Shown here piece after piece: positions 39,481 to 63,166 of a stretch of DNA of 64,000 nt. The stretch's first letter is position 1. Each line of letters opens with the position of its first letter. A program made the translations under genes and the position numbers. The stretch is from Occultella glacieicola (GTDB taxonomy: Bacteria; Actinomycetota; Actinomycetes; Actinomycetales; Beutenbergiaceae): the NCBI RefSeq assembly GCF_004353825.1, contig NZ_SMNA01000001.1:124001-188000 (forward strand). The letters run 5' to 3'. The notes under the pieces are model-generated. The model had not been told where the DNA came from and ran no database searches. It saw nothing but the letters and a program-made list of their open reading frames with translations.

Positions 39481-39486
39481 TCAAGC

Positions 39487-40682: not shown

Positions 40683-40699
40683 GGCTGGAGGAGCACACC

Positions 40700-43719: not shown

Positions 43720-43845
43720 GGTGCCTAGAGGGCGGTCCGGGTGCGGCTCCCGCGGTCGGGCGGGGCACGGCACCGTGGGTTCGATGCGGCGGCCGGCCTG
43801 TCGGCCGAACCGGACGAGGACGAGCAGGAGTCGGGAAAGAGGTCC

Positions 43846-46800: not shown

Positions 46801-47124
46801 GTCGTGACCGTCCTGCAGCCGGAGATCCGGCTGCTCCCGTCGGTCGCCCGGCCCGGGGACGTCGTGCTCGCCTACGGTGAGGACTTCCCACCCAACCAGG
46901 CGGTCACCCTGATCTGGACCCGGGGCATCACGGTCGATCCCGGACCGTACACGGTCACCCCGGAGGGCCGGTTGGTGGTCCCGATCGTTCTCGTCAGCCG
47001 GGACCTGCTCGGGGACCGGGAGATCGCGTCGACCTCCCCGGCCGGGGCGTTCGGTGAGGTCCGCGGCCCGCTGCTCGTGGTCGCCACCTCCGTCCAGGCA
47101 CCCAACTTCCTGTTCAGGGGCTGA
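43846..47124 (+). CDS. Secreted TolB-like (PD40/WD40) beta-propeller protein with C-terminal DUF11-like Ig domains
   Basis: Signal peptide; repeated P(A/D)(W/Y)SPDG; DL.L..T, T(V/I)TNNGP and D.D..NN Ig motifs. Confidence 0.8.
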   Translation: MARMLAVTAALGLLAPGAVAAVPMPPVTAELPAPDAASTRVAFTERGAGLGQAAWSVLTPGQLVGPDVELLEGREQDYELSVTHVQSPPEAVSSFISTRDSDVGDVYVQGAEGPAVRITCDEARVSHPVVSPDGLSVAYSTSVDDGPWRIVVADIDDPPCTGGTAPAISEGDWDDLWPAWLPGFGSETLVFSSTRHDPLGDIYMIDRGKDLLYRITEDPGADTQPAVGEVGNTVALAFTTTRFRADGSLAVVDLFATSPEELEEAGEIVSPFSGTIDQSSEPTWGVNANEGVDATLLYTGTRYDPYGDIFSIDVTEEVESEFGTLAFSSAGQVAEVFSRTDREPRAAPYSESHPAWTVTPGDEQEVGEDTRVITATFGAAQSDIGVVGADGAGRERLPASTVDVDDGGPAYSPDGAWVVFSSTVTAEDGREGARLMLAAADGSVVTPLNYAWDPGVPPGSEGEGSPPAIDIHPAWSPDGTRIAFERIYQGESDGQEFRTTEVLIADFVPEPAGGDVPVAATLSVPGYGNPDWSPDGRYLVTAGSLELAAYSDVAIVDLQDPDPETALTGLQYVPQGCGSDGCLPVGVNGRAPAWSPDGRTLAIANVSVLGLSSLGTRAISPDGETTPIALFTVDPDDPTAPSLEATPLVGFDDQGLPTPSRAELSNATDPAWSPDGSEIYLAGQPAGLADDWGIYAIRPDGTGLREVAQGPGPEIAPDVQPDVDLSLAMTASPNVVPVGGASTLTLTVRNEGLQSVGTYRVLLEAPAELQFGEPPAGCTVDDLVLTCVPTEPIAPLGVSILEIAVIGRVPGTTAEVSAVVLPGGPDRDADNNTVSTTITVTGTSIGTQEADLDLNLAVTPPTGWVGGQPMIARITVTNNGPEAITSATVTTGFPATVVPTALAITSTAPEDLGPPVDLTDPVTVACLTAAGACPIGPLLAGDSVVLEASLLPVGPAGTGEVTATVALDPAAARVDVDPGNDAATAVVTVLQPEIRLLPSVARPGDVVLAYGEDFPPNQAVTLIWTRGITVDPGPYTVTPEGRLVVPIVLVSRDLLGDREIASTSPAGAFGEVRGPLLVVATSVQAPNFLFRG

Positions 47125-47128
47125 GGCC

Positions 47129-47815
47129 ATGATCACCGAGGTCGACGACGCACTCCGGACCATGGTGCGGACCGCGCTGGGTGGTGCCGAGGCCGAGGTG
47201 GTCTTCGACGCACCCACCACGGACTGGGCCGCGCGTCGGAACGCCCCGACGGTCAACCTCTACCTCTACGACCTGCGCGAGGACCTGCGCAGGCGGACCA
47301 GGGGGTTCATCGAGACGCAGACCCCGGACGGGGTGGTCCGCTCCCACCCGCCGCGGTACTTCCGGCTCTCCTACCTCGTCACCGCCTGGACCCAGCGCCC
47401 CGAGGACGAGCACCGGCTCCTGGAGGTAGTGCTCGGACACCTCGTCCAGCACGAGGTCCTGCCCGAGCACGATCTGTTCCTGCCGCCCGGAGCGGACCCG
47501 GTGGTGCAGCTCCTGGTCGGTCTGCCGCCCCCGGAGGACCGCGGCTTCGCGGACGTGTGGAGTGCGCTCGGTGGCGAGCTGAAGCCGTCAATCGACGTGG
47601 TCGTGGTGGCGCCGCTCGCCGTGCGGCCCGGGCCGGCGGCGGGGCCGCCCGTGCGGGAGCCGCTCATCCTCGACGCCAAGGACGTGGTGCCCGACGGCGG
47701 AGCGGACGTCGGGCGGACGAAGCACAGTCCGCCGCCGCGCACCGAGGCGACCGGCCCTGCCGGAGGCGCCGACCGGCCGACGTCGCCGAAGGCCCGGGCC
47801 CGGGGGCGCCGGTGA
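47129..47815 (+). CDS. Pvc16/DUF4255 tail terminator-like protein
   Basis: PTVNLYLYDLRED, LSYLVTAW, DEHRLL, WSALGGELKPS. Confidence 0.88.
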   Translation: MITEVDDALRTMVRTALGGAEAEVVFDAPTTDWAARRNAPTVNLYLYDLREDLRRRTRGFIETQTPDGVVRSHPPRYFRLSYLVTAWTQRPEDEHRLLEVVLGHLVQHEVLPEHDLFLPPGADPVVQLLVGLPPPEDRGFADVWSALGGELKPSIDVVVVAPLAVRPGPAAGPPVREPLILDAKDVVPDGGADVGRTKHSPPPRTEATGPAGGADRPTSPKARARGRR

Positions 47816-50061
47816 CGACGACGCAGGACCCCACTCGGGTCGGCTCAGCGGGCCCGGAGGACCCAGCGGCCGGTCCCGCGCACGAGCGCAGGCCGGGCGA
47901 GCGGACCGAGGAGGCGGCGAGCATCGCCCACCTGCTCGGCCGCCTCGGCGTGCTCGAGGAGCGCATCCGTGCGCTGGTCGCCGAGCGCCGTGCCCACGAC
48001 CCACAGCCCGACGACCCGTTCCGTGGGCTCTACCTCAGCGACGAGGCGATCGAGGCGATCCTCGAACGCCGCCCCGGGCCGGCGCAGCCCACGCCGGCAT
48101 CCGTGCGGCTGGCGGACTGCGAGCGCGAGGCCGACGCGGCGCAGCATGCCGGGGCGCGGCTGCGGCTGCGGGAGGTCACCGACCGGTTCGGGCTGGACCC
48201 GCTCGATGTCGACCTGCTCCTGCTCGCGCTGGCCGCCGACGTCGACCCCCGGTTCGGGCAGTTCTTCGGGTACCTCAACGACGACGTGACCCGGCGGCGC
48301 CCGACCGTCGCCGTGGCACTGACGCTGTGCGACCGCCCCCTCGGTTCCGGCGCAGCGCGGGCCCACCTGATCCACGGCCCACTGATCGCCGGTGGCCTGG
48401 TGCGCATGGACGACGCGGACCAGCCGTTCCCGGTGCGGAGCCTGCGGATCCCGGACCGGGTGGCCGCCCACCTGCTCGGCGACGACGAGCCGGACCCGGC
48501 GCTCGCCGGTGTCCTGACCCCGGCGCCGGACACCGCCTGGGGCGACATCGACCCGCTGACCCGGGCGCTCGCCGCCGGGGTCGACCTGATCCACCTGAAG
48601 GAGGCGGCCACCGGCTCGGGACGGCTGCTCGGGATCGGAGCCCTGCACGCCCTCGGCCGGGACGCCGTCGTGCTCGACCTGCACCAACTCGCCGCCGCCC
48701 TCGACCCACCGGGCCTGGTCGACCTGGCGGTCCGCGAGGCCAGGCTCGGCGGGGCGGGTGTGGTGGCCGGTCCCGTGGAGGCGCTCGCCGAGACGTCCGC
48801 GGCCCGCTCGGCCCTGACGGCCCTCACGACGACTCTGACGAAGCCGAGTGCCACCGGCCCGGCCCGGTCCGGGCGCGACGTGCCGGTCCTCCTCGTCGGC
48901 TCCGCACCCTGGGACCCGGCCTGGGCGGCCCGGGCCCCCCTCCTCGTGGACGTCCCGGCCAGCACGGATGCCGAGCGGGCCGCGCTCTGGGCACGGGCCC
49001 TGGCCGATCCGGGGCCGGAGCCCAGCCGGGCGGCACCGACGAGCCCGCCCGGTCCGGACCCGGCCTTCGACCCCGAGGAGCTGGACGTCGCCGCGGCCAC
49101 GTCGCAGTACCGACTGGACCCGGAACAGGTGGTGCGGGCCGCGCGGGCGGCCCAGGTGCAGGCCCGGCTCGACGGCGGCCGGATCGCGGCCGAGCACCTG
49201 CGCCGCGGGGCTCGCGCCGAGAACGGCACCGCCCTGGACCGGCTCGCCCGCCGGATCGAACCGGCGGTCGGCTGGCCGGATCTGGTCCTGCCGCCGGCCA
49301 CCCTCACCGGGCTCCGGGAGCTGAGCCTGCGCGCCCGACACCGCGAACGGGTCCTCGGTGACTGGCGGATGCGCCCCGGGGGCGGCCGCGGGCACGGCGT
49401 CGCCGCCCTCTTCGCCGGCGACTCCGGCACCGGCAAGACGATGTCCGCGGAGGTGGTCGCCGGGGACCTCGGACTCGAGCTGTACGTCGTGGACCTGGCC
49501 ACCGTGATGGACAAGTACATCGGTGAGACGGAGAAGAACCTCGAGCGGATCTTCGCGGGGGCCGCACGTCTGAACGCGGTGCTGCTGTTCGACGAGGCGG
49601 ACGCCGTGTTCGGGAAGCGGTCGGAGGTCAAGGACGCCCACGACCGGTACGCGAACGTCGAGAGCGCCTACCTGCTCCAACGCATCGAGAGCTTCGACGG
49701 CCTTCTCATCCTGACCACGAATCTGCGCGCGAACATCGACGAGGCGTTCACCCGCCGGCTCGACGTCCTCGTGGACTTCCCGCTACCGGACGTCGAGTAC
49801 CGGCTCGCACTCTGGGACCAGTGCCTGGGGGCCGTGGTACCCCGGGCCGACGACCTCGACCTGGTGTTCTGCGCGGAGGCGTTCGCGCTCGCGGGCGGAG
49901 CGATCCGGTCGTCGGCGGTCACCGCCGCGTACCTGGCGGCGGCCGACGGCGGTCGGTTGGGGATGGTCCATCTGGTCACCGCGGTGCAGCGTGAGTACCG
50001 CAAGATGGGCCGGTTGAGCCTGCCGTCGGAGTTCGGGCGCTACTGGGACCTGATCGGCTGA
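47812..50061 (+). CDS. AAA+ ATPase (Afp15/Pvc15-like)
   Basis: GDSGTGKT, KYIGETEKNL, LLFDEAD, DRYANVE..YLLQRIE, AFTRR. Confidence 0.92.
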   Translation: MTTTQDPTRVGSAGPEDPAAGPAHERRPGERTEEAASIAHLLGRLGVLEERIRALVAERRAHDPQPDDPFRGLYLSDEAIEAILERRPGPAQPTPASVRLADCEREADAAQHAGARLRLREVTDRFGLDPLDVDLLLLALAADVDPRFGQFFGYLNDDVTRRRPTVAVALTLCDRPLGSGAARAHLIHGPLIAGGLVRMDDADQPFPVRSLRIPDRVAAHLLGDDEPDPALAGVLTPAPDTAWGDIDPLTRALAAGVDLIHLKEAATGSGRLLGIGALHALGRDAVVLDLHQLAAALDPPGLVDLAVREARLGGAGVVAGPVEALAETSAARSALTALTTTLTKPSATGPARSGRDVPVLLVGSAPWDPAWAARAPLLVDVPASTDAERAALWARALADPGPEPSRAAPTSPPGPDPAFDPEELDVAAATSQYRLDPEQVVRAARAAQVQARLDGGRIAAEHLRRGARAENGTALDRLARRIEPAVGWPDLVLPPATLTGLRELSLRARHRERVLGDWRMRPGGGRGHGVAALFAGDSGTGKTMSAEVVAGDLGLELYVVDLATVMDKYIGETEKNLERIFAGAARLNAVLLFDEADAVFGKRSEVKDAHDRYANVESAYLLQRIESFDGLLILTTNLRANIDEAFTRRLDVLVDFPLPDVEYRLALWDQCLGAVVPRADDLDLVFCAEAFALAGGAIRSSAVTAAYLAAADGGRLGMVHLVTAVQREYRKMGRLSLPSEFGRYWDLIG

Positions 50062-50176: not shown

Positions 50177-50264
50177 ACTCACGCTCGTGCGTAGCGACGC
50201 CGCCGGGTGACACGATCGCTGTTCCACCGATCCGCCGGACTCCGTCATGGAGAGGGGTGCTGTG

Positions 50265-51017
50265 ATGCACAGCCACGACCACACCGAGGACCTCGGACAG
50301 ATTCGGTCGGGCCCCGTCAGGCGCACCGAGGAGGGCTCCGGCGCCGCCCTGGCGGCCGCGGGAGCGGGCCGGCCGGACGTGCTCGGCTCCGCCGGCCTGC
50401 TGCGACTGCAGCGCACGGTCGGGAACGCGGGGGTCTCCGACCTGGTCGAACAGGAGCGCTCACCGGTCCTGGACGTGGTCGGGTCCGGCGGCGGGAACGC
50501 TCTCGACGACGACGTCCGCACCGACATGGAGTCGCGGCTCGGGCACGACTTCGGAGACGTCCGGGTGCACACGGACGGCGCCGCCAGCGCGTCCGCGGCG
50601 GCCGTGAACGCGCACGCCTACACGGTCGGCTCGAACGTGGTGTTCCAGCGGGACCGTTACGACCCGGGCTCCCACGAGGGCCGCACCATGCTCGCCCACG
50701 AGCTCACGCACGTGGTGCAACAGCGCAGCGGCCCGGTCGACGGCACGTCCACGGGTGACGGGGTGCGCGTCAGCGACCCGTCCGACCGGTTCGAGCGGGA
50801 GGCGGCCGCGAACGCCGAGCGGGTGATGTCCGCGCCGGCGCCGGCCGCTCCGGTGCAGCGCCACGGCGGGGCCGGGGAGGCCCCGGGTGGGTTCGTGCAG
50901 CGTGAGGGCGAGGAGGAGGAGCTCCAGGGTGCCTTCGTGCAGCGTGAGGGCGAGGAGGAGGAGCTCCAGGGTGCCTTCGTGCAACGTGAGGGCGAGGAGG
51001 AGGAACTCGAAGCGTGA
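50265..51017 (+). CDS. DUF4157 (eCIS core domain) protein
   Basis: LQRTVGN, DFGDVRVHT, AHAYTVG, LAHELTHVVQQ. Confidence 0.9.
   Translation: MHSHDHTEDLGQIRSGPVRRTEEGSGAALAAAGAGRPDVLGSAGLLRLQRTVGNAGVSDLVEQERSPVLDVVGSGGGNALDDDVRTDMESRLGHDFGDVRVHTDGAASASAAAVNAHAYTVGSNVVFQRDRYDPGSHEGRTMLAHELTHVVQQRSGPVDGTSTGDGVRVSDPSDRFEREAAANAERVMSAPAPAAPVQRHGGAGEAPGGFVQREGEEEELQGAFVQREGEEEELQGAFVQREGEEEELEA
50892..51008 (+). repeat. 42-bp tandem repeat, about 3 copies (FVQREGEEEELQGA)
   Basis: Units start at 50892, 50934 and 50976. Confidence 0.93.
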
Positions 51018-51137: not shown

Positions 51138-52703
51138 ATGCCGACGTATCTCTCGCCAGGCGTATATGTCGAGGAGGTTGAGGCTGGGACACGACCCATC
51201 GAAGGGGTCGGTACCTCAGTCGCAGCATTCGTCGGCCTGGCATCGAAGGGTCCGGTGAACGAGCCGACACTCGTCTCCAACTGGACCCAGTTCTCTGAGA
51301 CCTTCGGGGATTTCGTCCCGGGGTCCTACCTGGCCCACTCCGTGTTCGGCTACTTCCAGAACGGCGGCAACAACGCCTACATCGTCCGGATCGGGGCGAA
51401 CGGCACCGATGGTGCCAGGAGTTCCCGGTCCCGGGCGTCGAAGGCACTGCCGGCCGGCGCCCCCGGCGGCCAGATCGGTGGCTACCGTGTGGTGGCCAAG
51501 GCGGACGCCCCGAAGGGCAAGAAGATCAGCGTCGAGGTCGCCGATGCCGGTGGGGACAACCCATCGGATGACCAGTTCAAGCTGGTCATCAAGGTCGACG
51601 GCAAGGAGGCCGAGACGTTCGACAACGTCACGACCAAGCGCGGCGCCGACAATGCGGCCACCAAGGTGAACCAGCAGTCCAAGCTCATCACGATCGAGGA
51701 GGTGGCCTCGGGCAGCGCCCTCGCGAAACCGGACAAGGGCTCCTCGGACCTGGTTGCCCCGGAGCCCGAGCCCGAGCCGCCGTCGACCACCGACCTGGGT
51801 GCCGACGACTACATCGGCGACGCCGCCGACCGCACCGGGTTCAGTGGCCTCGAGGCCGTGGACGAGGTCACCATCGTGTCCGTGCCGGACCTGGTCGCGG
51901 CGCTCGAGCAGAAGGCCATCGACGCCGAGACCTTCCAGGCCGTCCAACTGGCCATGATCGCCCACTGCGAGCTGATGGGCGACCGGATGGCGATCCTCGA
52001 CCCACCGCCGGGCCTGAATGCGCAGCAGGTCAAGGACTGGCGGGTGAACACCGCCGGCTACGACTCGAAGTACGCGACGCTGTACTGGCCGTACATCAAG
52101 GTCTTCGACCCGAGCGACGGTGCGACCAGGTTCGTGCCGCCGTCGGGCCACATGGCCGGGATCTGGGCGCGCAGCGACGGTGAACGCGGCGTGCACAAGG
52201 CCCCCGCGAACGAGGTCGTCCGTGGTGCCATCGCCCTGCAGACGCAGATCACGAGGGCCGAGCACGACCTCCTCAACCCGGTGGGCGTGAACGCTATCCG
52301 GACCTTCCCGGGCCGGGGTGTGCGGGTCTGGGGAGCGAGGACCCTCTCCTCGGACCCGGCGTGGCGCTACATCAACGTGCGGCGACTCTTCAACTACCTG
52401 GAGGAGTCGATCCTCGGCGGCACCCAGTGGGTGGTCTTCGAGCCGAACGACCGCGCCCTCTGGGCCCGCATCCGACGGACCATCTCCGCGTTCCTGGTGA
52501 ACGAGTGGCGCAAGGGGGCCCTGTTCGGCAGCACGCCGGACGAGGCCTACTTCGTCAAGTGCGACGACGAGACGAATCCGGCCGAGGGCATCGACGCGGG
52601 TCAGGTCGTCTGCCAGATCGGGATCGCGCCGGTGAAACCGGCGGAGTTCGTCATCTTCCAACTGTCGCAGTTCTCCGGCGGCACATCACTCGTGAGCGAA
52701 TAG
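51138..52703 (+). CDS. Contractile tail sheath protein
   Basis: YLSPGVYVEE, PPSGH, GVHKAPAN, WGARTL, YINVRR, VFEPN, APVKPAEF. Confidence 0.96.
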   Translation: MPTYLSPGVYVEEVEAGTRPIEGVGTSVAAFVGLASKGPVNEPTLVSNWTQFSETFGDFVPGSYLAHSVFGYFQNGGNNAYIVRIGANGTDGARSSRSRASKALPAGAPGGQIGGYRVVAKADAPKGKKISVEVADAGGDNPSDDQFKLVIKVDGKEAETFDNVTTKRGADNAATKVNQQSKLITIEEVASGSALAKPDKGSSDLVAPEPEPEPPSTTDLGADDYIGDAADRTGFSGLEAVDEVTIVSVPDLVAALEQKAIDAETFQAVQLAMIAHCELMGDRMAILDPPPGLNAQQVKDWRVNTAGYDSKYATLYWPYIKVFDPSDGATRFVPPSGHMAGIWARSDGERGVHKAPANEVVRGAIALQTQITRAEHDLLNPVGVNAIRTFPGRGVRVWGARTLSSDPAWRYINVRRLFNYLEESILGGTQWVVFEPNDRALWARIRRTISAFLVNEWRKGALFGSTPDEAYFVKCDDETNPAEGIDAGQVVCQIGIAPVKPAEFVIFQLSQFSGGTSLVSE

Positions 52704-52716: not shown

Positions 52717-53163
52717 ATGCCACTTCCCGACGCCCTTGACTCGTCCTCCGCCTACGCCTTCCGGGTCACAATCGACGGGATCGAGATCCCCAAGGTGATC
52801 GAGGTCGGCGGACTCAAGGCCGAGGTCGACAAGATCGAGATGAAGCAGCAGCTCAAGGACGGCAAGTACGTCGTCCGCCAGATCTTCGGGCGCCCCAAGG
52901 CTGGTGAGTTCACGGTGACGCGTGGCCTCACGGACTCCAAGACGGTCGTGGACTGGCTGAAGACGGTCAGCCAGGGCGACCTGGCCGGGGCCCGCAAGAC
53001 CGCCGCGGTGGAGTTGCTCGACTATCAGGACGGGCTGCTGATGACGTACAACTTCACGAACTGCTGGATCCGCAGCGTCGAGATCAGTTCGCTCAAGGCC
53101 GGGGCCACGGAACAGTCGACCGAGAAGGCCACGGTCTGCTACGACGAGGTCACGATCGCGTGA
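52717..53163 (+). CDS. Tail tube protein (T4 gp19-like)
   Basis: FRVTIDG, FTVTRGLT, YNFTNCW; follows the sheath gene. Confidence 0.92.
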   Translation: MPLPDALDSSSAYAFRVTIDGIEIPKVIEVGGLKAEVDKIEMKQQLKDGKYVVRQIFGRPKAGEFTVTRGLTDSKTVVDWLKTVSQGDLAGARKTAAVELLDYQDGLLMTYNFTNCWIRSVEISSLKAGATEQSTEKATVCYDEVTIA

Positions 53164-53615
53164 TGCAGCGCTCACGTGCCGCACTGGCTCCGGCCGATCC
53201 GGAGCAGGAGGTCCTCGCGCCTCCCGCTCCGGATCGCCCGGCCACCATGCGTACCGAGTTCGACTTCGAACTGCCGCGGGGCTTCGTGGACGGTGACGGC
53301 GTCGTGCATCGGCGGGGCACGATGCGGCTCGCCACCGCGCGCGACGAGCTCCTGCCGCTCTACGACGCCCGGGTGCAGGAGAACGCGGCGTTCACGACCG
53401 TGGTGCTCCTCGGGCGGGTGATCACCTCGTTGGGCACCCTCGGGGTCGTCAACGCGAACGTGGTCGAGAACATGTTCGCCTCGGACGTGGCGTTCCTGCA
53501 GGACTTCTACCGGCGGATCAACGCCGAGGGGCACACCAGGGCGGCGGTCACCTGCCCGTCGTGCTCGCACCGGTTCACCCTCGACCTCTCGGGTGGCCGC
53601 CTGGGGGAATCATGA
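53160..53615 (+). CDS. Putative tail assembly chaperone
   Basis: TEFDFELPRGFVD, GTMRLATARDE, DVAFLQDFYRRIN, CPSC; follows the tube gene. Confidence 0.78.
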   Translation: MMQRSRAALAPADPEQEVLAPPAPDRPATMRTEFDFELPRGFVDGDGVVHRRGTMRLATARDELLPLYDARVQENAAFTTVVLLGRVITSLGTLGVVNANVVENMFASDVAFLQDFYRRINAEGHTRAAVTCPSCSHRFTLDLSGGRLGES

Positions 53616-53770
53616 CGTACGGGGCCGACCGCATCTATCAGGAGGTCGCGTACGTCGCCTACCACTTCCACTGGTCGCGTGAGGAGATCCTCGACCTCGA
53701 GCACCCGCAGCGGCTGCGGTTCGTGGCCGAGATCGCGAACATCAACCGGCGTCTTTCCGAGGACAGGTGA
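53612..53770 (+). CDS. DUF6760-like small protein (gpT-like half of the chaperone)
   Basis: MTY..DRIYQEVAYVAYHFHWSREEILDLEH..R..FVAEIANIN. Confidence 0.8.
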   Translation: MTYGADRIYQEVAYVAYHFHWSREEILDLEHPQRLRFVAEIANINRRLSEDR

Positions 53771-53773: not shown

Positions 53774-56700
53774 ATGCGATGGCCCTGGCAACCAGCGAAG
53801 GAGAAGACCCCACCGGCGCCGCCGTCTCCCTCGCCCGCGCCAGCGCGCCCGGCATCGGCGGCACCTGACCCTGAACCCGGGCCCGCCGGCTGGGCGTTCC
53901 TGCCACCGCTGCAACGGACCATCGGACCGGCCGAACTGGTCCATCGCCCGACGACGTTCCAGCACTCCCTGAGTGCGTGGGCGTCGCCGTCGTTCATGGG
54001 CGCCATGACGCACCTGGTCGACGCGTCCGCGCCGTCGGGGGTGGTCGACGGCGATCGCGCCGGTCTCATCGGTGCGCCGACCCAGCGGGTCGACTCCGCC
54101 GAACTCACGCTGCTGCCGCCCCCGCCGCCGTCGCCGCGGGTCCAACGGGCCGCATCGGGGGCCGCCGGGTCGATGACCCGGGCCGCCGCCGACGTGCGCG
54201 GACTGCCCGTGCACCATCCCACGGTCCTGCCCGACGTCCCGACCGAACCGGCGCCGCCGTCGGCGGACCACGGCGCGGGGCACGGTGAGTTCGGGCCGAA
54301 CGCCGACGCCGACGAACCCGGGCCGGAGACGGACGAACCGTCGGGATACCAGGAGGACGGAGCGACGTACGTGCCGATCGCCGCCCGGCCCTCCGGGGAG
54401 TCGGGAGCGGCGTCGGACGGCGCGATCGGAGCCGCGGGCACCCCCGTGCAGCGCACCGGGCCGACCGTTCCCGCGCCGCTCGCCGGGCCGGCGTCGGACG
54501 CACCGCTCCGACGCCTGGGGCTCGGTGCACCGCTGCCGACGGCGGACGTGCAGCGGCAGGTCGGCTCACCGGGGGCGTCGGCCGGGTCGAGTGCTCCGCC
54601 ATCCTCGGCACAGCCGCCATCGGTGTCACGCGTGGCTGGTCCCGCGGCCTCGTCCGGCCCGCCGCCTGGAGTCGCCACGGTGGCCGGGCCCGCGTCGACT
54701 TCCTCAGGGGCACCTGCGGGCCCGACCTCGACAGGCGCCTCGTCCGCGACGACCGTGGCGTCGCCCGGCACCGGCGCCACCGGTGCCGCGGTCCTCGGCT
54801 CGAACCCGGGCACGCTCGGTCCGCCGCCGGGTGTGCCGGCGACCGGACCGGTACCGGCGGGCGCGTTCCCAGCGGCGCCCCTGCCGCTGCAGCGGGCCGT
54901 GCCCGGGGGCGCAGCCACACGCGGTGACGAGCACGCTCCCACGGCCGGCGGCACGGGCGGGGCGTTCCCGGAGCACGACGGTTCAGCGTTCGCGGGGCCG
55001 GACCCGGCCAGCGCCGTGGCCGAGGCTGCGGGGGCGGTCGAGCCCGCGGCTGCGGGCGAACCTGCGCTCGCTATCGAACCCGCTGTGGCTGTCGAACCCG
55101 CTGTGCCCATCGAACCCGCTGTGCCGATCGAACCCGCTGTGCCGATCGAACCCGCAGGACCCATCGGAGCCGCAGTGCCCATCGAAGCTCCGACGCCCAT
55201 CGGACCCGCAGTGACCGTCTCGCGAACGGCCGCCGACCCGCAGACCGTGGTCCCCATCGGGCTTGGCCCCGTCACCGAGCCGCGTGCGGTGGATCCGCCG
55301 ATCGTCCCCTCGGTCGATCCACCGCACGCCCCCATGCCGCTGGCCACATCGGCCGGACCGGACGAGGCCGCCCGCGGCCCGGCGGGCGGCGCCACCGCAG
55401 TCCCCGGCCCGACCGCGGCGCCCACGCCGACGCCGGTGCAGCGGACGGCGGTGGCCCCCACCGTGCCGGAACCGGGCGTCCCCTCCTCGACGGTTGTGGA
55501 TCCCACGGCTGTTCGGTCCACCCTCGCACCACCGCAACGGACCATCGGACCGGCCGTCGACGCGGGTGGAGCCGGTTCATCCGTGCCGCCGGGTTCGGTG
55601 GGTTCGGCGGCACTGGGTTCAGCGGCACCGGGTTCGGCCGCGCAGGCGTCGGTCGTACAGCGGCAGGCGGCTGCCGGTGGCACGACGCCTGAGCTCGACC
55701 TCCGGCGAACCGGCGCGGACCGCGCACCCGGATCGGGCGCCACGGCCCCGGCCGGCGCGGGTCGCGTCGCCGAGCGGCCGACGCTCGCCCCGCTCCAGCG
55801 CGTGGCAGAGCAGTGGGGACGGACCACGCAGGGCGCTGCCTCGACGTCGGCCCGGCCGGGCCCGGGCCAGAGCGCCCGGCCCCCGCTGGTCCAGCGTGCG
55901 ACCACGACCCCGGCTCCGGATCGACCCGGTTCCGCGACGGCAGCATCGCGGGCCCCCGCCCGGGCCCCGGGGCAGGCACCCACGGTCGGCGCCGCCGAGG
56001 TCGCCGGACGCGTGGCCCCGGGACCACCCCCCGCAGGAACGCCCGGGCCAGCCGGCGTTGCCCAGGGGGTCGCGTTCGATGCCGCCTCCGGCACCGGCGC
56101 GGCGGCGGGCACGGGCCCGATCCTCGGGCCGGATCCGGACGCCGACGGTTCGGGTGCCGCGGGGTCCGACCTCCCGGCTTCGCTCACGGACACCGGAATC
56201 CTCGCGCAACGGACCGTGGCCGGACCCGCCTCGGCGCCGGCGACCGAACGCGGCCCGCTCGGCCCCGGATCCCCCAGCCGCGTGGACCTGCCCGTCGCGG
56301 TCGTCGGTGCGGCCACGGCAGGGTCCCACCCACCGGCCGGCGCATCCGGGAGGTCGCCGGGGAACGTCGCCCCGATGGTCTCCAGGGCGCACGCCTCCGC
56401 GGCCACGAGACCGATCGGGCCGGCCCTCGTGGCGCCACCGGCGGCCGGGTCCGCGCGACCGATCGGACTGCTCGGCGACGCAGGTCGTGGGCCGGTGGCC
56501 ACGCTCACCCGGTCGACCGAGGCGATCGGCACGGACCTCCACGACCCGGAGGTCGACCCGTGGCCCGGCGGCGGGCCGGTCCTGGCCCCCGCCGGTACAG
56601 TCGAACTCGGGGCCGGCGCCGCCGACGGACCGGTCGTGGCCCGGAGCATCCCGGGCACGCTGAGCACCCCGGGCACGCGGAATACCCCGGGCACGCTGAG

Positions 56701-57163
56701 CACGCTGAGCACTCCCGGCCACGTGGACCTCCCGGTCGCCCATGCGGTCGGCATCGAGTCGGTCGACACCGCGCCGGCTCCGACGCGCCCACGCCGGCCG
56801 CGCCTCCTCGGTGGTCATCGCGGCGGCGGCGCCCCGAACGCCGGCGGGCTCCCCCTGAACCAACCACCCGCGGCCGCCCAGCCCAGCCAGCCCGGCCCGT
56901 CCGGCCAAACCGGCCCACCCGGCACCGATGCCGCTGCGGCGAACCCGGGCTCCGCCGTCGGCCCCTCGGTCGCCCCGGCCGCCTCCGTGACGACCACGGT
57001 CGCCCGGGCCGACCCCGACCGCGCGGCGGGCGGTCTCGGCGAGCTCTCCGCGGGCGCCGTCGAGGAGCTCGCCGACCGGCTCACCGGCCCGATCATGCGG
57101 CGGCTGCGGGCCCAACTACTCGTGGACCGCGAACGTCGCGGCATCCGCACGGACCTGCGGTAG
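53774..57163 (+). CDS. 1129-aa Pro/Ala/Gly-rich CIS protein (tape-measure-like or lumen cargo)
   Basis: Lies between chaperone and second tube; N-terminal GW..LPPLQRT..F..SL.AW..PSF; C-terminal ELADRL..PIMRRLRAQLLVDRERRG. Confidence 0.7.
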   Translation: MRWPWQPAKEKTPPAPPSPSPAPARPASAAPDPEPGPAGWAFLPPLQRTIGPAELVHRPTTFQHSLSAWASPSFMGAMTHLVDASAPSGVVDGDRAGLIGAPTQRVDSAELTLLPPPPPSPRVQRAASGAAGSMTRAAADVRGLPVHHPTVLPDVPTEPAPPSADHGAGHGEFGPNADADEPGPETDEPSGYQEDGATYVPIAARPSGESGAASDGAIGAAGTPVQRTGPTVPAPLAGPASDAPLRRLGLGAPLPTADVQRQVGSPGASAGSSAPPSSAQPPSVSRVAGPAASSGPPPGVATVAGPASTSSGAPAGPTSTGASSATTVASPGTGATGAAVLGSNPGTLGPPPGVPATGPVPAGAFPAAPLPLQRAVPGGAATRGDEHAPTAGGTGGAFPEHDGSAFAGPDPASAVAEAAGAVEPAAAGEPALAIEPAVAVEPAVPIEPAVPIEPAVPIEPAGPIGAAVPIEAPTPIGPAVTVSRTAADPQTVVPIGLGPVTEPRAVDPPIVPSVDPPHAPMPLATSAGPDEAARGPAGGATAVPGPTAAPTPTPVQRTAVAPTVPEPGVPSSTVVDPTAVRSTLAPPQRTIGPAVDAGGAGSSVPPGSVGSAALGSAAPGSAAQASVVQRQAAAGGTTPELDLRRTGADRAPGSGATAPAGAGRVAERPTLAPLQRVAEQWGRTTQGAASTSARPGPGQSARPPLVQRATTTPAPDRPGSATAASRAPARAPGQAPTVGAAEVAGRVAPGPPPAGTPGPAGVAQGVAFDAASGTGAAAGTGPILGPDPDADGSGAAGSDLPASLTDTGILAQRTVAGPASAPATERGPLGPGSPSRVDLPVAVVGAATAGSHPPAGASGRSPGNVAPMVSRAHASAATRPIGPALVAPPAAGSARPIGLLGDAGRGPVATLTRSTEAIGTDLHDPEVDPWPGGGPVLAPAGTVELGAGAADGPVVARSIPGTLSTPGTRNTPGTLSTLSTPGHVDLPVAHAVGIESVDTAPAPTRPRRPRLLGGHRGGGAPNAGGLPLNQPPAAAQPSQPGPSGQTGPPGTDAAAANPGSAVGPSVAPAASVTTTVARADPDRAAGGLGELSAGAVEELADRLTGPIMRRLRAQLLVDRERRGIRTDLR
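55037..55216 (+). repeat. In-frame 18-bp degenerate tandem repeat (IEPAVP), about 10 units
   Basis: ATCGAACCCGCTGTGCCN units at 55073, 55091, 55109, 55127, 55145 with degenerate flanking copies. Confidence 0.85.
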
Positions 57164-57176: not shown

Positions 57177-57614
57177 ATGTCAGAGGTGCTCCAGGAGGTC
57201 GAGACCGGAGTCGGTGTCCGGTACGTCGTCAAGATCGACGGCGTCGACCTGGGGTCGTTCAGCTCGTGCACGGGGCTCGGGGTCGAGGTGGTCATGGAGG
57301 TGCGCGAGGAGGGCGGCAACAACACCAACGCCTGGCAGTTGCCCACCCGCCTGAAGTACCCGAACATCACTCTGACCCGCCCGCTCGGGAAGGACACGTC
57401 CAAGGTCGCCGAGTGGTTCTCCTCGGTGGCGAAGGGGTACAAGCGCCGCACCGGCACCATCGAGGCGATGACCGTCGACGGGCGGATCATCGCGACCTGG
57501 GGTCTCACCGACATCGTTCCGGTGCGGTGGTCCGGTCCCACGTTCAACTCCGACAGTCCGGCGATCCTGACCGAGTCCGTCGAGATCGCCCACCACGGCT
57601 TCCTGGCCCCCTGA
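57177..57614 (+). CDS. Second tail tube-like protein (Afp5-like)
   Basis: FSSCTGLG, EEGGNN, QLPTRLKYPNITLTR, PVRWSGP, EIAHHGF. Confidence 0.92.
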   Translation: MSEVLQEVETGVGVRYVVKIDGVDLGSFSSCTGLGVEVVMEVREEGGNNTNAWQLPTRLKYPNITLTRPLGKDTSKVAEWFSSVAKGYKRRTGTIEAMTVDGRIIATWGLTDIVPVRWSGPTFNSDSPAILTESVEIAHHGFLAP

Positions 57615-57630: not shown

Positions 57631-58425
57631 ATGCCCGCACCCGTAGCGTTCGAGGCCGCCGGAGCCGGTGGAGCCGGCTCCCCGGCCCGGCTCGAGCACG
57701 CCTACCTGCAGCTCCACGAGCCGTCCAAGGACGGGTCCCTGTCCAAGCCCGGACCGAAACTGGAGCGCGTCGACTTCCAGTTCAACCCCAAGGAGCTGAG
57801 CCTGACCAAACGGGCGGTGTGGAAGGACAGCCCGGCCACCGGCAACAAGAAGGCCGGGCCGCCGCAATACACCGGGCCGCAGCCCACCACGCTCACCCTG
57901 GAGATGTTCCTCGATGCCTCCGACACCCAGGACTCCTCGGTGGTGAAGAAGGTGGAGCGCCTGTTCACCTGCTGCGTGCCCACGGCGGCGTCGTTCGGGC
58001 AGAAGAAGGCGTCACCACCGTGGGTGCTGTTCCGGTGGGGCGGGCTGACCGGGTTCCTCGCCTATATCGAGTCGGTCTCGGCGACGTACACACTGTTCAC
58101 GTCCGCCGGTCTGCCGATCAGGGCCACCTGTACGGTGACCCTGAACGAGATCGCCGGTGAGCAGCCGGGCCAGAACCCCACCTCGGGCGGGCTCGTGCCG
58201 CGTCGCGAGCATGTGCTCCGCGCCGGGGACTCGCTCGCCGGCATCGCGTACGCCGAGTACGGGGACCCGGCCTTGTGGCGGGCGGTGGCCGACCTCAACG
58301 GAGTGGACGATCCGGTCCGACTCCGGCCCGGGCACCGGCTCCTGCTGCCCGCGGCGGACGAACTGCCGAGCGTGGCGGCCCGCCGTGGCCCGGTGGACGC
58401 GGAGGTGGCACATGCCGGCTACTGA
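57631..58425 (+). CDS. CIS tube initiator with LysM domain (Afp7-like)
   Basis: FQFNP, PPWVLFRWG, GLPIRA, GDSL..IAY.EYGDP.LWR.VA..N. Confidence 0.9.
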   Translation: MPAPVAFEAAGAGGAGSPARLEHAYLQLHEPSKDGSLSKPGPKLERVDFQFNPKELSLTKRAVWKDSPATGNKKAGPPQYTGPQPTTLTLEMFLDASDTQDSSVVKKVERLFTCCVPTAASFGQKKASPPWVLFRWGGLTGFLAYIESVSATYTLFTSAGLPIRATCTVTLNEIAGEQPGQNPTSGGLVPRREHVLRAGDSLAGIAYAEYGDPALWRAVADLNGVDDPVRLRPGHRLLLPAADELPSVAARRGPVDAEVAHAGY

Positions 58426-60247
58426 GACCTTCACCTCCAGCCTGATCGTGACCGTGGACGGGGCGGCCCTGGCGCCGACGCTTGCCGCGAACCTGGTCTC
58501 CGGGACGATCGAGGACACGATCCAGCTGCCGTCGATGTTCACGCTGCGGTTCGCCGATCCCCATGCCGAACTGATCGAGACGGCGCAACTGAAGATCGGC
58601 GCCAAGGTGGACCTGCGGGTGCAGACGAGTAGCACCGGCGGCCCGGAGGAGCTGTTCATCGGCGAGGTGACCGCGCTCGAGGCCGAGCTCGGGCCGACCG
58701 GCATGTTCGCGATCGTCCGGGGCATGGACCCCTCCCACAAGCTCCAGCACGGCACCCGGATCAAGGCCTACCTGAACAAGGGGCCCGGGGACATCGTCGG
58801 TGAGATCGCCGCCGCGCACGGCCTCGGTAAGGGGACCGTGGACGTGCAGCAACCCATCTACACCCACCTGACCCAGGACGGGATCAGCGACTGGGACTTC
58901 CTCGGCAGGCTCGGGAACCGGGTCGGGGCCCGCCCGAACGTGCGCGACGGGAAGCTCCACTTCCGCGCCGCGACCGACTCGAGCACCGCACCGGCCGCAG
59001 GAAGCCGGGCCGACCCGCTGGTCATCGAACGTGGCGTCGACCTGGAATGGGTCCGCGCCACGGTGACCGCCGCCGATCAGGTGCCCGATGTCGAGGTGCG
59101 TGGCTGGGACCCGGACGGCAAGCGCGAACTCGTCGCGACGGCGCCGGCGAAGACCGTGGTGGCGGCACCCGCCGGCCCGAGCACCCCGGCGAAGCTCGCG
59201 GCGGGGGTCGGCGCGCCCACCTACGTGGTGTCCCGGTCGTCGCTGAGCACCCAGGCCGAGTGCGACGGCGAGGCAAAGGCGCTCGCGGAGCGTCTCGCTG
59301 GGGGATTCGCCGAGGTCGAGGGCGGCGGGTACGGGAACGCAGCCCTGCGGGCCGGAGTGGCCGTGCTGCTGGCCGGGGTCGGCACCACCTTCGAGGGTGC
59401 CTACACGCTGACCCACGTGCGGCACGAGTTCTCCGATGAGGGCTTCCGCACCTCGTTCACGGCCTCCGGTGCGTCCGAACGAACCCTCTACGGCAGCACC
59501 CGCGGTGGTGAGAGCGCGCCGGTGCGCGCGGGCGTGGTCCCCGCGATCGTCACCAACCTCAAGGACACCGCTCAGGCGGGCCGGGTGAAGGTCAAGTACC
59601 CGACGTACTCCGGTGACTACGAGAGCGGCTGGGCGCGCCCGGTGCAGGTGGGCGCCGGCGGGCAGCGCGGAACGATGGTGCTGCCCGAGGTCGGCGACGA
59701 GGTCCTGGTCGCCTTCGCGGAGGGGGAGTTCGGCACCCCCTACGTTCTCGGAGGCCTCTACAACGGCAAGGACAAGCCCGACAAGGCGTTGTCCGAGCAC
59801 GTCGGCAGCGACGGCAAGGTGACGAGGCGCTCGTTCACCTCACGCACCGGGATGCTCGTGGAGTTCCTCGAGAAGCCCGGCGGGGAGTCCCTCGTGGTGA
59901 GCACGAACGGCGGCCAGCAGCGCATCACCCTGACCCAGAAGCCGGAGGCCGCCATCGAGATCGTCACCACCGGGCCCGTCACCGTCAAGTCGCAGCAGGA
60001 CGTCACGGTGGAGGCACAGCGCAACATCTCCGTGAAGAGCGTCGGCGGCGACATCGCGATGGAGGCCATGAACATCAAGCTCAAGGCCCAGGCAGGGTTC
60101 GAGGCCGGTGGGGCAACCGTGAAGGTCGCCGGGCAGGCGTCGACCGAGGTCACCGGTGCCAACGTGAAGGTGGCCGCGAACGCCGCCGCGGAACTCTCGT
60201 CCGGCGCCATGACCACCATCCGCGGCGCCCTCGTGAAGATCAACTAG
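58412..60247 (+). CDS. VgrG-like spike protein
   Basis: SDWDFL, VRGWD, GRVKVKYP, LPEVGDEVLVAF..G..PYVLGGLYNG; beta-helix tail ending VKIN. Confidence 0.93.
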   Translation: MPATETFTSSLIVTVDGAALAPTLAANLVSGTIEDTIQLPSMFTLRFADPHAELIETAQLKIGAKVDLRVQTSSTGGPEELFIGEVTALEAELGPTGMFAIVRGMDPSHKLQHGTRIKAYLNKGPGDIVGEIAAAHGLGKGTVDVQQPIYTHLTQDGISDWDFLGRLGNRVGARPNVRDGKLHFRAATDSSTAPAAGSRADPLVIERGVDLEWVRATVTAADQVPDVEVRGWDPDGKRELVATAPAKTVVAAPAGPSTPAKLAAGVGAPTYVVSRSSLSTQAECDGEAKALAERLAGGFAEVEGGGYGNAALRAGVAVLLAGVGTTFEGAYTLTHVRHEFSDEGFRTSFTASGASERTLYGSTRGGESAPVRAGVVPAIVTNLKDTAQAGRVKVKYPTYSGDYESGWARPVQVGAGGQRGTMVLPEVGDEVLVAFAEGEFGTPYVLGGLYNGKDKPDKALSEHVGSDGKVTRRSFTSRTGMLVEFLEKPGGESLVVSTNGGQQRITLTQKPEAAIEIVTTGPVTVKSQQDVTVEAQRNISVKSVGGDIAMEAMNIKLKAQAGFEAGGATVKVAGQASTEVTGANVKVAANAAAELSSGAMTTIRGALVKIN

Positions 60248-60260: not shown

Positions 60261-60671
60261 ATGGGTCAGGAGTTCATCGGGGCCGGCTGGTCCTTCCCGC
60301 TGCGGTTCGACCGTACCGGGCGGGTCGCCCTGGTCCGCGAGACCCGTGAGATCGAGGAGAGCATCCGCCTGATCCTGGCCACCTCCCCGGGGGAGCGGCC
60401 GATGCGGCCGGAGTTCGGCTGTGCCATCCACGACTACGTGTTCGCACCGGCCAACGCCGCGACCGCCGGTGACATCGCCTACGTCGTGAGGGTGGCGCTG
60501 GACCGCTGGGAGCCCCGCATCGACCTCGAGGACGTGGTGGTGCGCTTCGACGCGGCCGACGACGGCGTCCTGTTCGTCGACGTCGTCTACTCCATCCGCG
60601 GCACCAACGAGCCGCGGAACCTGGTCTTCCCGTTCTATGTGATCCCCACCCACGACGAGGCCGGAGCCTGA
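60261..60671 (+). CDS. GPW/gp25 family baseplate protein
   Basis: GWSFP, ILATSPGERPMRPEFGC, WEPRI, NLVFPFY. Confidence 0.94.
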   Translation: MGQEFIGAGWSFPLRFDRTGRVALVRETREIEESIRLILATSPGERPMRPEFGCAIHDYVFAPANAATAGDIAYVVRVALDRWEPRIDLEDVVVRFDAADDGVLFVDVVYSIRGTNEPRNLVFPFYVIPTHDEAGA

Positions 60672-60672
60672 C

Positions 60673-62622
60673 ATGCTGCCCACCCCGAACCTCGACGACC
60701 GCCGCTTCCAGGACCTCGTCGACGACGCCAAACGGATGGTGCAGCGGCACAGCCCGGAATGGACGGATCACAACGTCTCCGACCCTGGGGTGACCCTCAT
60801 CGAGACCGTCGCGTTCATGACCGACGAACTCTTCTACCGGCTCAACCGGGTGCCGGACCGGCTCTACCTGACCTTCCTCGACCTGCTCGGCATGAGCCTG
60901 CTCCCGCCGACCGCCGCCAGCGTGGACGCCACCTTCTGGCTCTCCGCGGCGCAGCCCGAGACGGTCGCGGTGCCGGAGGGCTTCGAGATCTCCACGTTGC
61001 GCACCGAGGACGACCCGGCCACGCTGTTCGCGACCGTCCGCGCGCTGGAGATACCGCCGCGGCGGCTCGCGCACGTCATGACCCAGGGGGCCGAGGGGGA
61101 GGCGCTGCTGCGCGACGAGGACCTGCTCGGCGGCGACGGGTTCGAGGTCTTCTCCGCGAAACCGGTCGAGGACGACGTGCTCCTGGTCGGTCTCGACGAG
61201 CCGGCCCCCTCGTGTGCGGTGGCGCTCCGATTCGAGTCCGAGGTGCAGGGCGTCGGCGTCGACCCGCGGAACCCCCCGCTGGTCTGGGAGGCCTGGGACG
61301 GCCGACGGTGGGTCGCCTGCGACCTGGACAGCGACGGCACCGGCGGACTGAACCGGGCCGGGGACGTGGTCCTGCACGTCCCGGAGACCCACACGGCCTC
61401 GGTCATCGGGCGGGTCCGGGCCGGCTGGCTGCGGTGCCGGGTGATCCCCGCGGACGAGGGCTTCCCGTTCTACAGCGCCTCCCCCACGATGCGGGCCGCG
61501 AGCGCGACCACGGTCGGTGGCACGGTGCCCGCGGTCCATGCCGAGACGATCAATAACGAGGTCCTCGGACTCTCCGAGGGCACGCCGGCACAGGTGTTCC
61601 CGCTCGAGCGCCGTCCGGTCGTGGCGGGCGGTCCGCCGATCGAGCTCGAGGTGGCCGACGGCGGTGGCTGGCAGCGCTGGACGGAGGTCGACTCGTTCGC
61701 CGGTGCCGGACCGGACGACCACGTCTTCTGGGTCGACCGCGCCCAGGGGGCGCTGCACCTGGGTCCCGCGGTGCGTCAGGTGGACGGGTCGCTTCGCTCC
61801 TACGGCGCGGTGCCGCCGAAGGGGGCACCGCTGCGGGTCCTGAGCTACCGCACCGGGGGCGGGCCCTCCGGCAACGTCGGGGCCCGGACGATCCGCGTCA
61901 TGCGGGCCACGGTGCCGTTCGTGGACCGGGTCGAGAACCGGCGTCCGGCGCTCGGCGGGGTGGCGCCCGAGTCGATCGCCGAGGCCCGCCTGCGCGGGCC
62001 GCTGGCCCTGCGGACCAGGGACCGCGCCGTGACCGCGGAGGACTACGAGCAACTCGCCCGGGCCGCGGCGCCCGGGATCGCGAGAGTGCGGGCGGTCCCG
62101 GCCGTCGGCGATGCCGACGCGGGGGCGGTGCGGGTGCTCGTGGTGCCGTCCGCCGTCCCGGACGACGAGGGCCAGCTCCGGTTCGAGGATCTGGTGCCCT
62201 CCTCCGATGATCTCGCCGCGGTGGCGGCCTACCTCGACGACCGGCGCCCGGTGGGGGTGCGCGTGCTCGTGGAGCCGCCGTTCTACCAGGGCGTGACCGT
62301 CGTGGCCCGGTTGAGCCCGCGGCCCCGCACGACCGCACACGTGCTCGAGCGCAACGCGATCCGGGCGCTGAACCGGTACTTCGACCCGCTCACCGGAGGG
62401 CTCGACGGCGGGGGGTGGCCGTTCGGGAGACCGGTGCAGGCCGGCGAGGTGTACGCCGTGCTGCAGCGTCTGCCCGGCACGGAACTGGTCGAGGACGTGA
62501 AGCTGTTCGCGGCCGACCCGATCACCTCGCGGCGGGGCGAGCCGGTTCAACGCATCGAACTGGACCAGCATGCCCTGGCGTTCTCCTACCGGCATCAGGT
62601 CCGGATCACGGCGGGAGGCTGA
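60673..62622 (+). CDS. Baseplate J-like protein (Afp11-like)
   Basis: PNLDDRRFQDL, WTDHNVSDPGVTL, YRTGGG..GNV, RAVTAEDYE, GWPFGR. Confidence 0.93.
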   Translation: MLPTPNLDDRRFQDLVDDAKRMVQRHSPEWTDHNVSDPGVTLIETVAFMTDELFYRLNRVPDRLYLTFLDLLGMSLLPPTAASVDATFWLSAAQPETVAVPEGFEISTLRTEDDPATLFATVRALEIPPRRLAHVMTQGAEGEALLRDEDLLGGDGFEVFSAKPVEDDVLLVGLDEPAPSCAVALRFESEVQGVGVDPRNPPLVWEAWDGRRWVACDLDSDGTGGLNRAGDVVLHVPETHTASVIGRVRAGWLRCRVIPADEGFPFYSASPTMRAASATTVGGTVPAVHAETINNEVLGLSEGTPAQVFPLERRPVVAGGPPIELEVADGGGWQRWTEVDSFAGAGPDDHVFWVDRAQGALHLGPAVRQVDGSLRSYGAVPPKGAPLRVLSYRTGGGPSGNVGARTIRVMRATVPFVDRVENRRPALGGVAPESIAEARLRGPLALRTRDRAVTAEDYEQLARAAAPGIARVRAVPAVGDADAGAVRVLVVPSAVPDDEGQLRFEDLVPSSDDLAAVAAYLDDRRPVGVRVLVEPPFYQGVTVVARLSPRPRTTAHVLERNAIRALNRYFDPLTGGLDGGGWPFGRPVQAGEVYAVLQRLPGTELVEDVKLFAADPITSRRGEPVQRIELDQHALAFSYRHQVRITAGG

Positions 62623-62623
62623 G

Positions 62624-63166
62624 ATGCGCGGCATGCTCCCCGGGATCGTCCCGGTCGTCCCGATCGCCTCCCGAATGCCAGGGGTGTACGCCGACGACGA
62701 GGCGATGCAGGCCATCACGCGGGCCCTGGACGAGGTGCTGGCGCCGACCTACACCACGCTGGACTCCCTCTGGACCTACCTCGACCCGCACCTGGCGCCG
62801 GAGGACTTCCTGGAGTGGCTCGCGGACTGGGTCGGCGTCGAGGTCGACGACGCCTGGTCCCTCGAGCGCAAGCGGGAGATCGTGGCGCAGGCCGCCCAGA
62901 TCCACCGCCTGCGCGGCACGGCGGCCGGCCTGGAACTGGCCGTTCGGCTGGTCACGGGAGCGGAGGTCACGGTGGCCGACTCCGGCGGCACCATCTGGTC
63001 GCGGACCCCGGGTGCGGACCTGCCCGGCAAGGCGCCGGCGGAGCTGACCGTGACCGTGCACGTGCCCGACCCGGACACGGTCGACCTGGCCCGGGTGGAC
63101 CGGGTGGTCAGGGACGTCAAGCCCGCGCACGTGCCGCACGTCGTCGAGATCGTGGAGGTGGCCTGA
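62624..63166 (+). CDS. Baseplate wedge / P2 gpI-like protein
   Basis: YLDP.LAPEDFLEWLADWVG, RGT..GL, KPAH. Confidence 0.9.
   Translation: MRGMLPGIVPVVPIASRMPGVYADDEAMQAITRALDEVLAPTYTTLDSLWTYLDPHLAPEDFLEWLADWVGVEVDDAWSLERKREIVAQAAQIHRLRGTAAGLELAVRLVTGAEVTVADSGGTIWSRTPGADLPGKAPAELTVTVHVPDPDTVDLARVDRVVRDVKPAHVPHVVEIVEVA

Follow-up and report, generated by a model that had tools for sequence, protein, structure and literature searches.

We analyzed a 64,000-nucleotide stretch of Occultella glacieicola DNA (contig NZ_SMNA01000001.1, forward strand, positions 124,001 to 188,000; hereafter the window, in whose own numbering all positions are given) that contains a gene cluster for a contractile injection system (CIS). 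Within this cluster a short gene, which we call G, is overlapped at its 3′ end by an open reading frame (ORF) in the −1 frame, T, which encodes a DUF6760 domain. Our analysis indicates that the two are very probably connected by programmed −1 frameshifting of ribosomes, as in the G/GT chaperones of phages, here retained in a chromosomal injection system. The case is a comparative one, built from sequences: it combines a fixed frame, a fixed slippery word, frequent loss of the T start codon, a 3′ stem-loop that appears to be selected, homology of both halves, and in-frame fusions in a related family. We infer the slip itself, its rate, the stimulatory role of the stem-loop, and the binding partners of the products. 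A G-T fusion with the DUF6760 ORF as its T half had been proposed in an original prediction made from the letters of the window, and the same lines of evidence, together with the likeness of T to the E′ part of phage P2, argue strongly in its favor.

A slippery heptamer at the junction of G and T

The 3′ end of G reads CTG GGG GAA TCA TGA (53601–53615), which places the heptamer G GGG GAA in slippage register shortly before the stop codon, exactly as originally described. The −1 frame runs through this site without a stop, its open stretch beginning 319 nt upstream of the last base of the G stop, and its product matches DUF6760 (PF20546) from 53612 to 53770 with an E-value of 4e-15, above the cut-off, so that the ORF recognized earlier as DUF6760-like is a member of that family in the predicted frame. 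T comprises 53 amino acids after the shift (52 counted from its ATG), and the predicted G-T fusion has ~202 amino acids. The G of the T start codon is also the first paired base of a stem-loop that follows the heptamer. A start of the T ORF at a GTG at 53561 was considered and rejected; in several homologues the T frame opens only 10–30 nt before the G stop.

In-frame G GGG GAA is rare in this genome of 71% GC (37 of 1,778,767 codon positions), and 2 of 4,825 genes end with it according to crude gene calls. Two further long frames in the same genome (contig C17, minus strand, near 528,330, and contig C21, near 6,170) end just past a G GGG GAA that is in register and is followed by a long open −1 frame; these may be genes or chance occurrences.

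Conservation of the frame and the slippery word

We gathered 235 loci, for which 12 of 46 plasmid matches were taken for taxonomic spread, and found a G+T pair in 210; the 25 that were dropped had neither gene (11), T only (1), or G only (13). Collapsing the pairs at 90% G identity left 130 representatives, and collapsing them at 70% left 44. One row in these counts comes from an unpublished genome (locus L007, genome G148), and no claim depends on that row alone.

T lies in the −1 frame in 207 of the 210 pairs and in 127 of the 130 representatives, and the word G GGG G(A/G)N is present in 185 of the pairs. By word, the 130 representatives divide into G GGG G(A/G)N (108), XXXYYYZ (6), G GAG GG(A/G) (4), GGGG only (3), and none (9); the same classes hold 28, 5, 1, 3, and 7 of the 44 representatives at 70% identity. 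Frame and G-run are kept across records from Actinomycetota, Bacillota, Pseudomonadota, and Cyanobacteriota and in many metagenomic loci (the named records include many Actinomycetota, Paenibacillus, Paraburkholderia, Rhizobium, Nostoc, and Brasilonema), and the pattern spans the whole of our tree, a quick tree that included no test of independent changes.

Codon choice around the site points to selection on the nucleotide word rather than on the protein. Among the representatives with Gly followed by Glu or Gly at the slip site, the Gly is written G GGG in 108 of 108, as compared with GGG in 23% of other Gly codons and in only 17–30 of about 107 at five other conserved Gly columns. The codon before it specifies eight different amino acids through nine codons, all of which end in G (background 46%), and the slip-site Glu is GAA in 75 of 81 cases (background 22%). 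The distance from the G-run to a conserved Tyr of T is likewise nearly constant, at 14 nt in 97 loci and 17 nt in the other 11. Variable codons or other frames among homologues, which the original prediction had named as the outcome that would count against it, were thus not the pattern that we found.

In an evenly drawn sample of 41 genomes of one genus (g8), searched with G only, we found 30 loci in 23 genomes. CTG GGG GAA was present at 25 of these loci and G GGG GGG at one; one had a −1 frame without a clear word or start, one was an in-frame fusion, and the remaining two rows were a single locus with a double G domain and the word T TTT TTA.

Other heptamers occur at distant loci: A AAT TTT on a contig of 32% GC, G GGA AAA, and T TTT TTA. 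Two haloarchaeal plasmids (L112 and L114, from Haloferax and Halogeometricum) carry the canonical words G GGA AAC/AAT three codons before the stop, with the −1 frame open and an ATGA present; we detected no stem-loop signal at the usual place in these two loci. Four loci (L170, L172, L175, and L181) have the variant G GAG GG(A/G) directly before the stop, where the slip may occur in the P site at a paused stop codon; the stem of L170 is very strong (z −6).

A stem-loop 3′ of the heptamer

The window stem-loop is more stable than synonymous recodings of the same region (z −4.0; 0 of 60 recodings were as stable), with a z of only −1.0 in a wider 81-nt fold. In 27 of the 108 loci that carry the G-run word, the mean z was −3.8 directly after the heptamer and −2.7 six bases on, as compared with −0.6 to +0.2 in twelve windows farther off. 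At the level of single loci, the stem beat its synonymous recodings (p ≤ 0.05) in 95 of the 108; this was so in 6 of 105 for a control window within T, and in 1 of 11 loci from a clade that lacks the slip site. The spacer between heptamer and stem, 4 nt in the window, is 2–6 nt in 86 of the 108.

The helix comes in two registers five bases apart (64 and 38 loci). In one of them the rare Val codon GTA is used in 55 of 64 loci (background 53 of 1187), and one stem pair covaries, being G-C in 26 loci and C-G in 21. On these comparisons the stem-loop is under selection, and we regard it as a candidate stimulator of the shift. A possible upstream Shine-Dalgarno-like helper has a weak signal, being better than synonymous recodings in 17 of 108 loci versus 1 of 108 for a control window.

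The start codon of T

No ATG, GTG, or TTG lies between the G-run and the conserved Tyr of T in 58 of the 108 slip-bearing representatives, and the G stop is TAA or TAG in 54. Where a T start is present, it follows the G-run by 4 nt (43 loci), 1 nt (6), or 7 nt (1). The −1 frame ahead of the annotated start is constrained as protein: the residue three positions before the Tyr is Ile in 85, Val in 11, and Met in 7 of the 108. The representatives without any slippery word, by contrast, have a start codon in 9 of 9 cases. T is probably misannotated in some records: the RefSeq entry forces a start at ATA in Nostoc, and the ORF is omitted from GenBank in Brasilonema.

Relationship of G and T to phage tail chaperones

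G matched the tail-assembly-chaperone family phrog_508 with an E-value of 0.0016, as did 36 of 36 homologues (best E 3.8e-10), and G homologues weakly matched Phage_TAC_7 and Gp41_Mu; a distant relative of G (L265) matched Phage_TAC_7, the family of P2 gpE, above the cut-off. The best Protein Data Bank (PDB) hits of a G model (predicted local distance difference test, pLDDT, 90) were the HK97 chaperone 2ob9 (Z 6.5, root-mean-square deviation 3.4, 85 residues aligned) and YqbN 3klu (Z 6.2), both ahead of unrelated chains. The chaperone cluster in the accessible part of PMC3711429 is HK97-like. The viral fold matches of G were T4 gp26-like proteins (best E 1e-7) and Mu FS-gp41 (E 0.05).

For T, 29 of 58 homologues weakly matched PF06528 (Phage_P2_GpE; best E 0.0014, below the cut-off), and hhalign aligned T with P2 E′ at a probability of 78 and an E-value of 1.8e-5. 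The T model had a pLDDT of 91. In tblastn searches of phage records, G gave E-values of 0.1 or worse and T only terminase noise. A complex prediction of T with the tube subunit scored 0.00, which gives no verdict and counts neither way. Taken with the comparative evidence for the shift, the similarities to phage families suggest that DUF6760 is very probably the frameshifted T half of a tail chaperone, which would give this unexplained family a role.

A close parallel is phage P2, in which gpE/gpE+E′ occupies the same position after sheath and tube and the short gene has a −1 shift annotated close to its 3′ end. DUF6760 members resemble PF06528, which is the −1-frame part of the annotated E+E′, and past the annotated shift site of P2 there is a GTGA overlap that offers a similar start in the T frame; such an overlap therefore does not speak against a shift. 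P2 differs in that its slip takes place on a T-run and a true tape-measure gene comes next, whereas the window locus combines G GGG GAA with a strong 3′ stem-loop, is chromosomal, and encodes a G whose tail has a CxxC motif; moreover, among the 101 representatives with enough flank, 24 have a tube gene directly after T.

The heptamer itself has its counterpart in actinophages. Mycobacteriophage L5 has the identical CTG GGG GAA at the end of gene 24, with gene 25 annotated as joined to it, and the accessible part of PMC10885494 describes this GGGGGAA ('fivetwo') in about a thousand annotated SEA-PHAGES chaperone shifts. These phages differ from the window locus in having non-contractile tails and a much longer T part, and we found no sequence match of the window G or T to the L5 or actinophage chaperones. 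With lambda gpG/gpGT the locus shares a functional model, in which the tape measure is the partner of G, the tube subunit that of T, and their ratio is set by a −1 shift (PMC5009743, as far as accessible); the heptamer differs, the window locus has no recognized tape measure, and partners are assigned to its products by analogy.

Shifted, fused and split forms

The G and T halves also occur in one continuous frame. Locus L266 joins a double-G domain (PF12322, like the T4 gp26-type baseplate hub assembly chaperones) to DUF6760 in a single chain; it has 974 relatives among 8,000 scored candidates, and 120 of the 120 relatives listed carry a G-like domain with a C-terminal T domain. These double-G proteins are homologous to G and have DUF6760 either in frame, as in L266 and its 120 listed relatives, or in the −1 frame, as in L265; they differ from the window pair in having two G repeats, and the in-frame form needs no recoding. 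That a fused state exists implies that G-T is a working architecture. A first set of 31 candidate fused proteins was rejected as evidence: the 12 that we read were frame switches or unrelated extensions, and 22 of the 31 carry −1-frame junction residues.

The in-frame family, with the double G-like and DUF6760 parts at L266:1495-2352 (G484:C2) and in relatives P0182–P0301, adjoins a gp19 tube gene. The double-G gene at L265:1465-2429 (G500:C2) ends ACG AAT TTT TTA GTT CTG GAG TGA with DUF6760 in the −1 frame, and its slippery word is A/T-rich within a GC-rich genome.

A third, split state is found in 11 representatives (families f17, f41, and f62) that form a clade in the quick tree with a support of 100 in the Shimodaira-Hasegawa-like approximate likelihood ratio test. 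Here T has a start of its own, neither a clear slip site nor a stem-loop is present, and three of the T ORFs lie in frame 0 behind the stop. The existence of this state implies that T can stand alone, which leaves a dual route possible in the window lineage. In the split-clade loci (L012, L016, L018, L020–L022, L230–L233, and L235), G has no CxxC tail but a long extension, acidic or of low complexity, that ends near a conserved R-I-E-E-V motif; this extension might hold free T non-covalently.

Proposed mechanism and alternatives

In the mechanism that we propose, most ribosomes would read G to the stop at 53615, two codons past the heptamer, and release G. A minority would pause at the stem-loop that starts 4 nt past G GGG GAA and slip back by one base, with GGG re-pairing to GGG and GAA to GGA with one G:U pair, whereupon they would pass the stop and add DUF6760 to give the ~202-amino-acid fusion. 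By analogy to lambda, G would coat an extended protein of the tube lumen and the T domain would recruit the tube subunit, and the G:GT ratio would be determined by how often ribosomes shift.

Several observations weigh against frameshifting or reduce the force of the evidence for it. First, G GGG GAA departs from the canonical X XXY YYZ pattern, which provides full re-pairing of both tRNAs: the change from GAA to GGA alters the middle base, and G:U pairing alone rescues this slip, as discussed in the accessible text of PMC10885494, in which the actinophage shifts are annotations rather than tests. Second, the loci that we compared are related, so our counts lack independence, and the metagenomic loci were selected for their resemblance to a single alignment. 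Third, most pairs within each register of the stem are invariant rather than compensatory, and RNAalifold found no stem in a mixed alignment of 54 sequences because the two registers were mixed; the evidence is therefore for selection on stability more than for covariation. Fourth, an RTG codon is kept at the T start in most Actinomycetota rows and in 25 of the 25 G GGG GAA loci of the g8 sample, and such an arrangement has parallels among coupled starts of the window's own genome: of the 217 that have a Shine-Dalgarno-like word, 25 have it at the 4-nt spacing, and 20 of 282 have a structure as stable as that at the T start. Fifth, the PDB Z-scores of the G model are all under 8 and hence middling, hhalign gave no direct match between the G profile and P2 gpE, and Foldseek gave no match below E 0.001 with the T model. 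Finally, the split clade dispenses with the slip site, and in seven G genes with enough flank there was no adjacent T; the other six of the 13 G-only loci end within about 55 nt of G. The loci with G and no adjacent DUF6760 (L115, L116, L117, L119, L132, L134, and L135) are on Pseudanabaena, Deinococcus, and Treponema plasmids and viral contigs.

Of the alternatives, the one that survives best is compatible with frameshifting, namely that both routes operate in the window lineage, with the shift producing GT and re-initiation at the ATG or GTG producing some free T besides. CTG replaces RTG in few Actinomycetota rows even though TCC is a common Ser codon, ATG is frequent even though it needs the rarer TCA, and terminating ribosomes would unwind the base of the stem. 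However, the start was lost in scattered relatives on the quick tree (L051, L078, L089, and L011), stem pairing explains the GTG, and the ATG rows may share one inherited change, which leaves a dual route possible but somewhat unlikely.

Translational coupling without any shift, in which GGGGG would be the Shine-Dalgarno sequence for the ATG in ATGA and T a separate 52-amino-acid protein, accounts for the presence of the ATG, the RTG kept in Actinomycetota, the resemblance in spacing and GGGG words to the genome's own coupled starts, and the clade with a stand-alone T. It does not account for the missing start codon in over half of the slip-bearing representatives, nor for the synonymous GGA, which would give a better GGAG word, being found in 0 of 108. 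The position of the G-run is fixed to the Tyr of T and not to the start, and the start is buried by the stem-loop under selection. Moreover, where G stops at TGA, the −1 frame necessarily reads an NTG codon, and at 30 of 38 loci the stem includes the G of GTG as a paired base; the retention of GTG can thus be explained without initiation. We therefore consider coupling alone improbable. Least credible of all is transcriptional slippage, by which RNA polymerase would add or drop a G and so bring the two ORFs into one frame on part of the mRNAs: the run has six or seven G in 27 of the 108 loci, but it is only five G in the other 81, it keeps its codon register and its ribosome-like spacing to a 3′ mRNA stem, distant loci switch to register-bound XXXYYYZ words, and polymerase slippage favors long A/T runs.

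Implications of the frameshift reading

If the −1 frameshift operates as proposed, DUF6760 gains a role and many annotations, such as those of Nostoc and Brasilonema, are implied to be wrong. To our knowledge, the list of non-viral programmed frameshifts is short, and this one would add a widespread cellular case to it. A conserved G/GT pair also predicts a hidden client, and expression, recoding, or deletion of such operons must keep the site and the stem-loop.

The G/GT mechanism is textbook knowledge for phages; its setting in a cellular injection system, the stem-loop, the three states, and the role of DUF6760 appear unreported in the literature that we searched. DUF6760 occurred in no paper and the combination of injection system, Streptomyces, and frameshift in none, in a search that most subscription papers fall outside. 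The word frameshift had 0 occurrences in the main text of the CIS papers examined. Supplementary material, above all file 1 of PMC10020575 and the PMC3711429 cluster tables, might contain an earlier mention or peptide evidence.

The injection-system gene cluster

The window holds an eCIS-type (extracellular CIS) gene set in one cluster, with genes for the sheath, two gp19 tubes, the spike, the baseplate, an AAA ATPase, Pvc16, and the eCIS core protein (Table 1), and judged by its genes the locus is a chromosomal actinobacterial contractile injection system. G is present in a single copy in the genome.

Table 1. Features of the G/T junction and of the surrounding gene cluster, in window coordinates.
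Feature	Position	Strand	Evidence
Pvc16_N cap/terminator-type gene (start uncertain)	47054..47815	+	PF14065
AAA ATPase with WHD domain (start uncertain)	47557..50061	+	domain matches
eCIS core (DUF4157) protein	50247..51017	+	PF13699
Sheath	51138..52703	+	PF04984, PF17482
Tube (gp19-like)	52717..53163	+	PF06841
G, tail-assembly-chaperone gene; 150-151 amino acids; GTG 53160 or ATG 53163; C-terminal CxxC	53160..53615	+	phrog_508, fold matches
GGGTGG, possible weak upstream Shine-Dalgarno-like helper, 6 nt before heptamer (uncertain)	53591..53596	+	
Slippery heptamer G GGG GAA, in register	53603..53609	+	sequence; G GGG G(A/G)N in 108/130 representatives
T, DUF6760 domain, −1 frame; three helices	53609..53770	+	PF20546
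Spacer, 4 nt, heptamer to stem-loop	53610..53613	+	fold of 53610-53660
ATGA overlap: G stop 53613-53615, annotated T start 53612-53614	53612..53615	+	sequence
3′ stem-loop, candidate frameshift stimulator; GACGTACG paired with CGTACGTC plus upper stems; −24.0 kcal/mol	53614..53656	+	folding
1129-amino-acid Pro/Ala-rich protein with xQR motifs; candidate lumen cargo or ruler	53774..57163	+	composition, motifs; no Pfam match
Second tube (initiator-type)	57177..57614	+	PF06841
CIS_tube/LysM protein	57631..58425	+	domain matches
VgrG-like spike/hub ORF (true start probably later)	58157..60247	+	PF04717, PF05954
Baseplate genes gp25, J, I	60261..63166	+	PF04965, PF04865, PF09684

The original prediction had placed the G/T pair between a tube gene and a long tape-measure-like gene. 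The tube gene is indeed directly upstream; the second label, which was based on position and size, is unproven, as a Pfam scan of the 1129-amino-acid product gave no match. This protein is of low complexity and rich in Pro, Ala, and Gly; it contains 11 xQR motifs at intervals and, around residues 420–480, a short tandem repeat, and its gene has a GC content at third codon positions of 0.83. Among the 101 representatives with enough flank, the gene after T was a tube gene in 24, a gene like that of the window in 5, another long ORF in 36, and short or absent in 36.

The cytoplasmic CIS of Streptomyces (CIS-Sc, SLP) has the same gene set as the window locus. There, the gene after the tube gene is sco4251, to which no function is assigned (PMC10020575, PMC10066040), with neither a frameshift nor a chaperone role mentioned in the accessible text of the two papers. 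The particles of S. coelicolor are of one length, and no tape-measure gene has been recognized for them (PMC12237407, in its accessible part). We tentatively suggest, as an idea that we would not yet favor over its negation, that injection systems without a recognized tape-measure gene run the full G/GT program, with a stem-tuned frameshift setting the ratio that loads an unrecognized ruler or cargo into the tube and thereby determines how long the particle becomes. Such a non-viral programmed frameshift would be widespread, shared by several bacterial phyla and haloarchaea, in a family that moves between shifted, fused, and split forms. In the window, the ruler or cargo would perhaps be the eCIS-core protein or the 1129-amino-acid product with xQR motifs.

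A 1127-amino-acid protein with PD40 propeller repeats and DUF11 domains (43741–47124), encoded directly upstream of Pvc16, is possibly a further member of the cluster. Genes like rpsF, ssb, and rplI, recognized by the N-termini of their products, lie ~6 kb upstream of the cluster (39475–41146).
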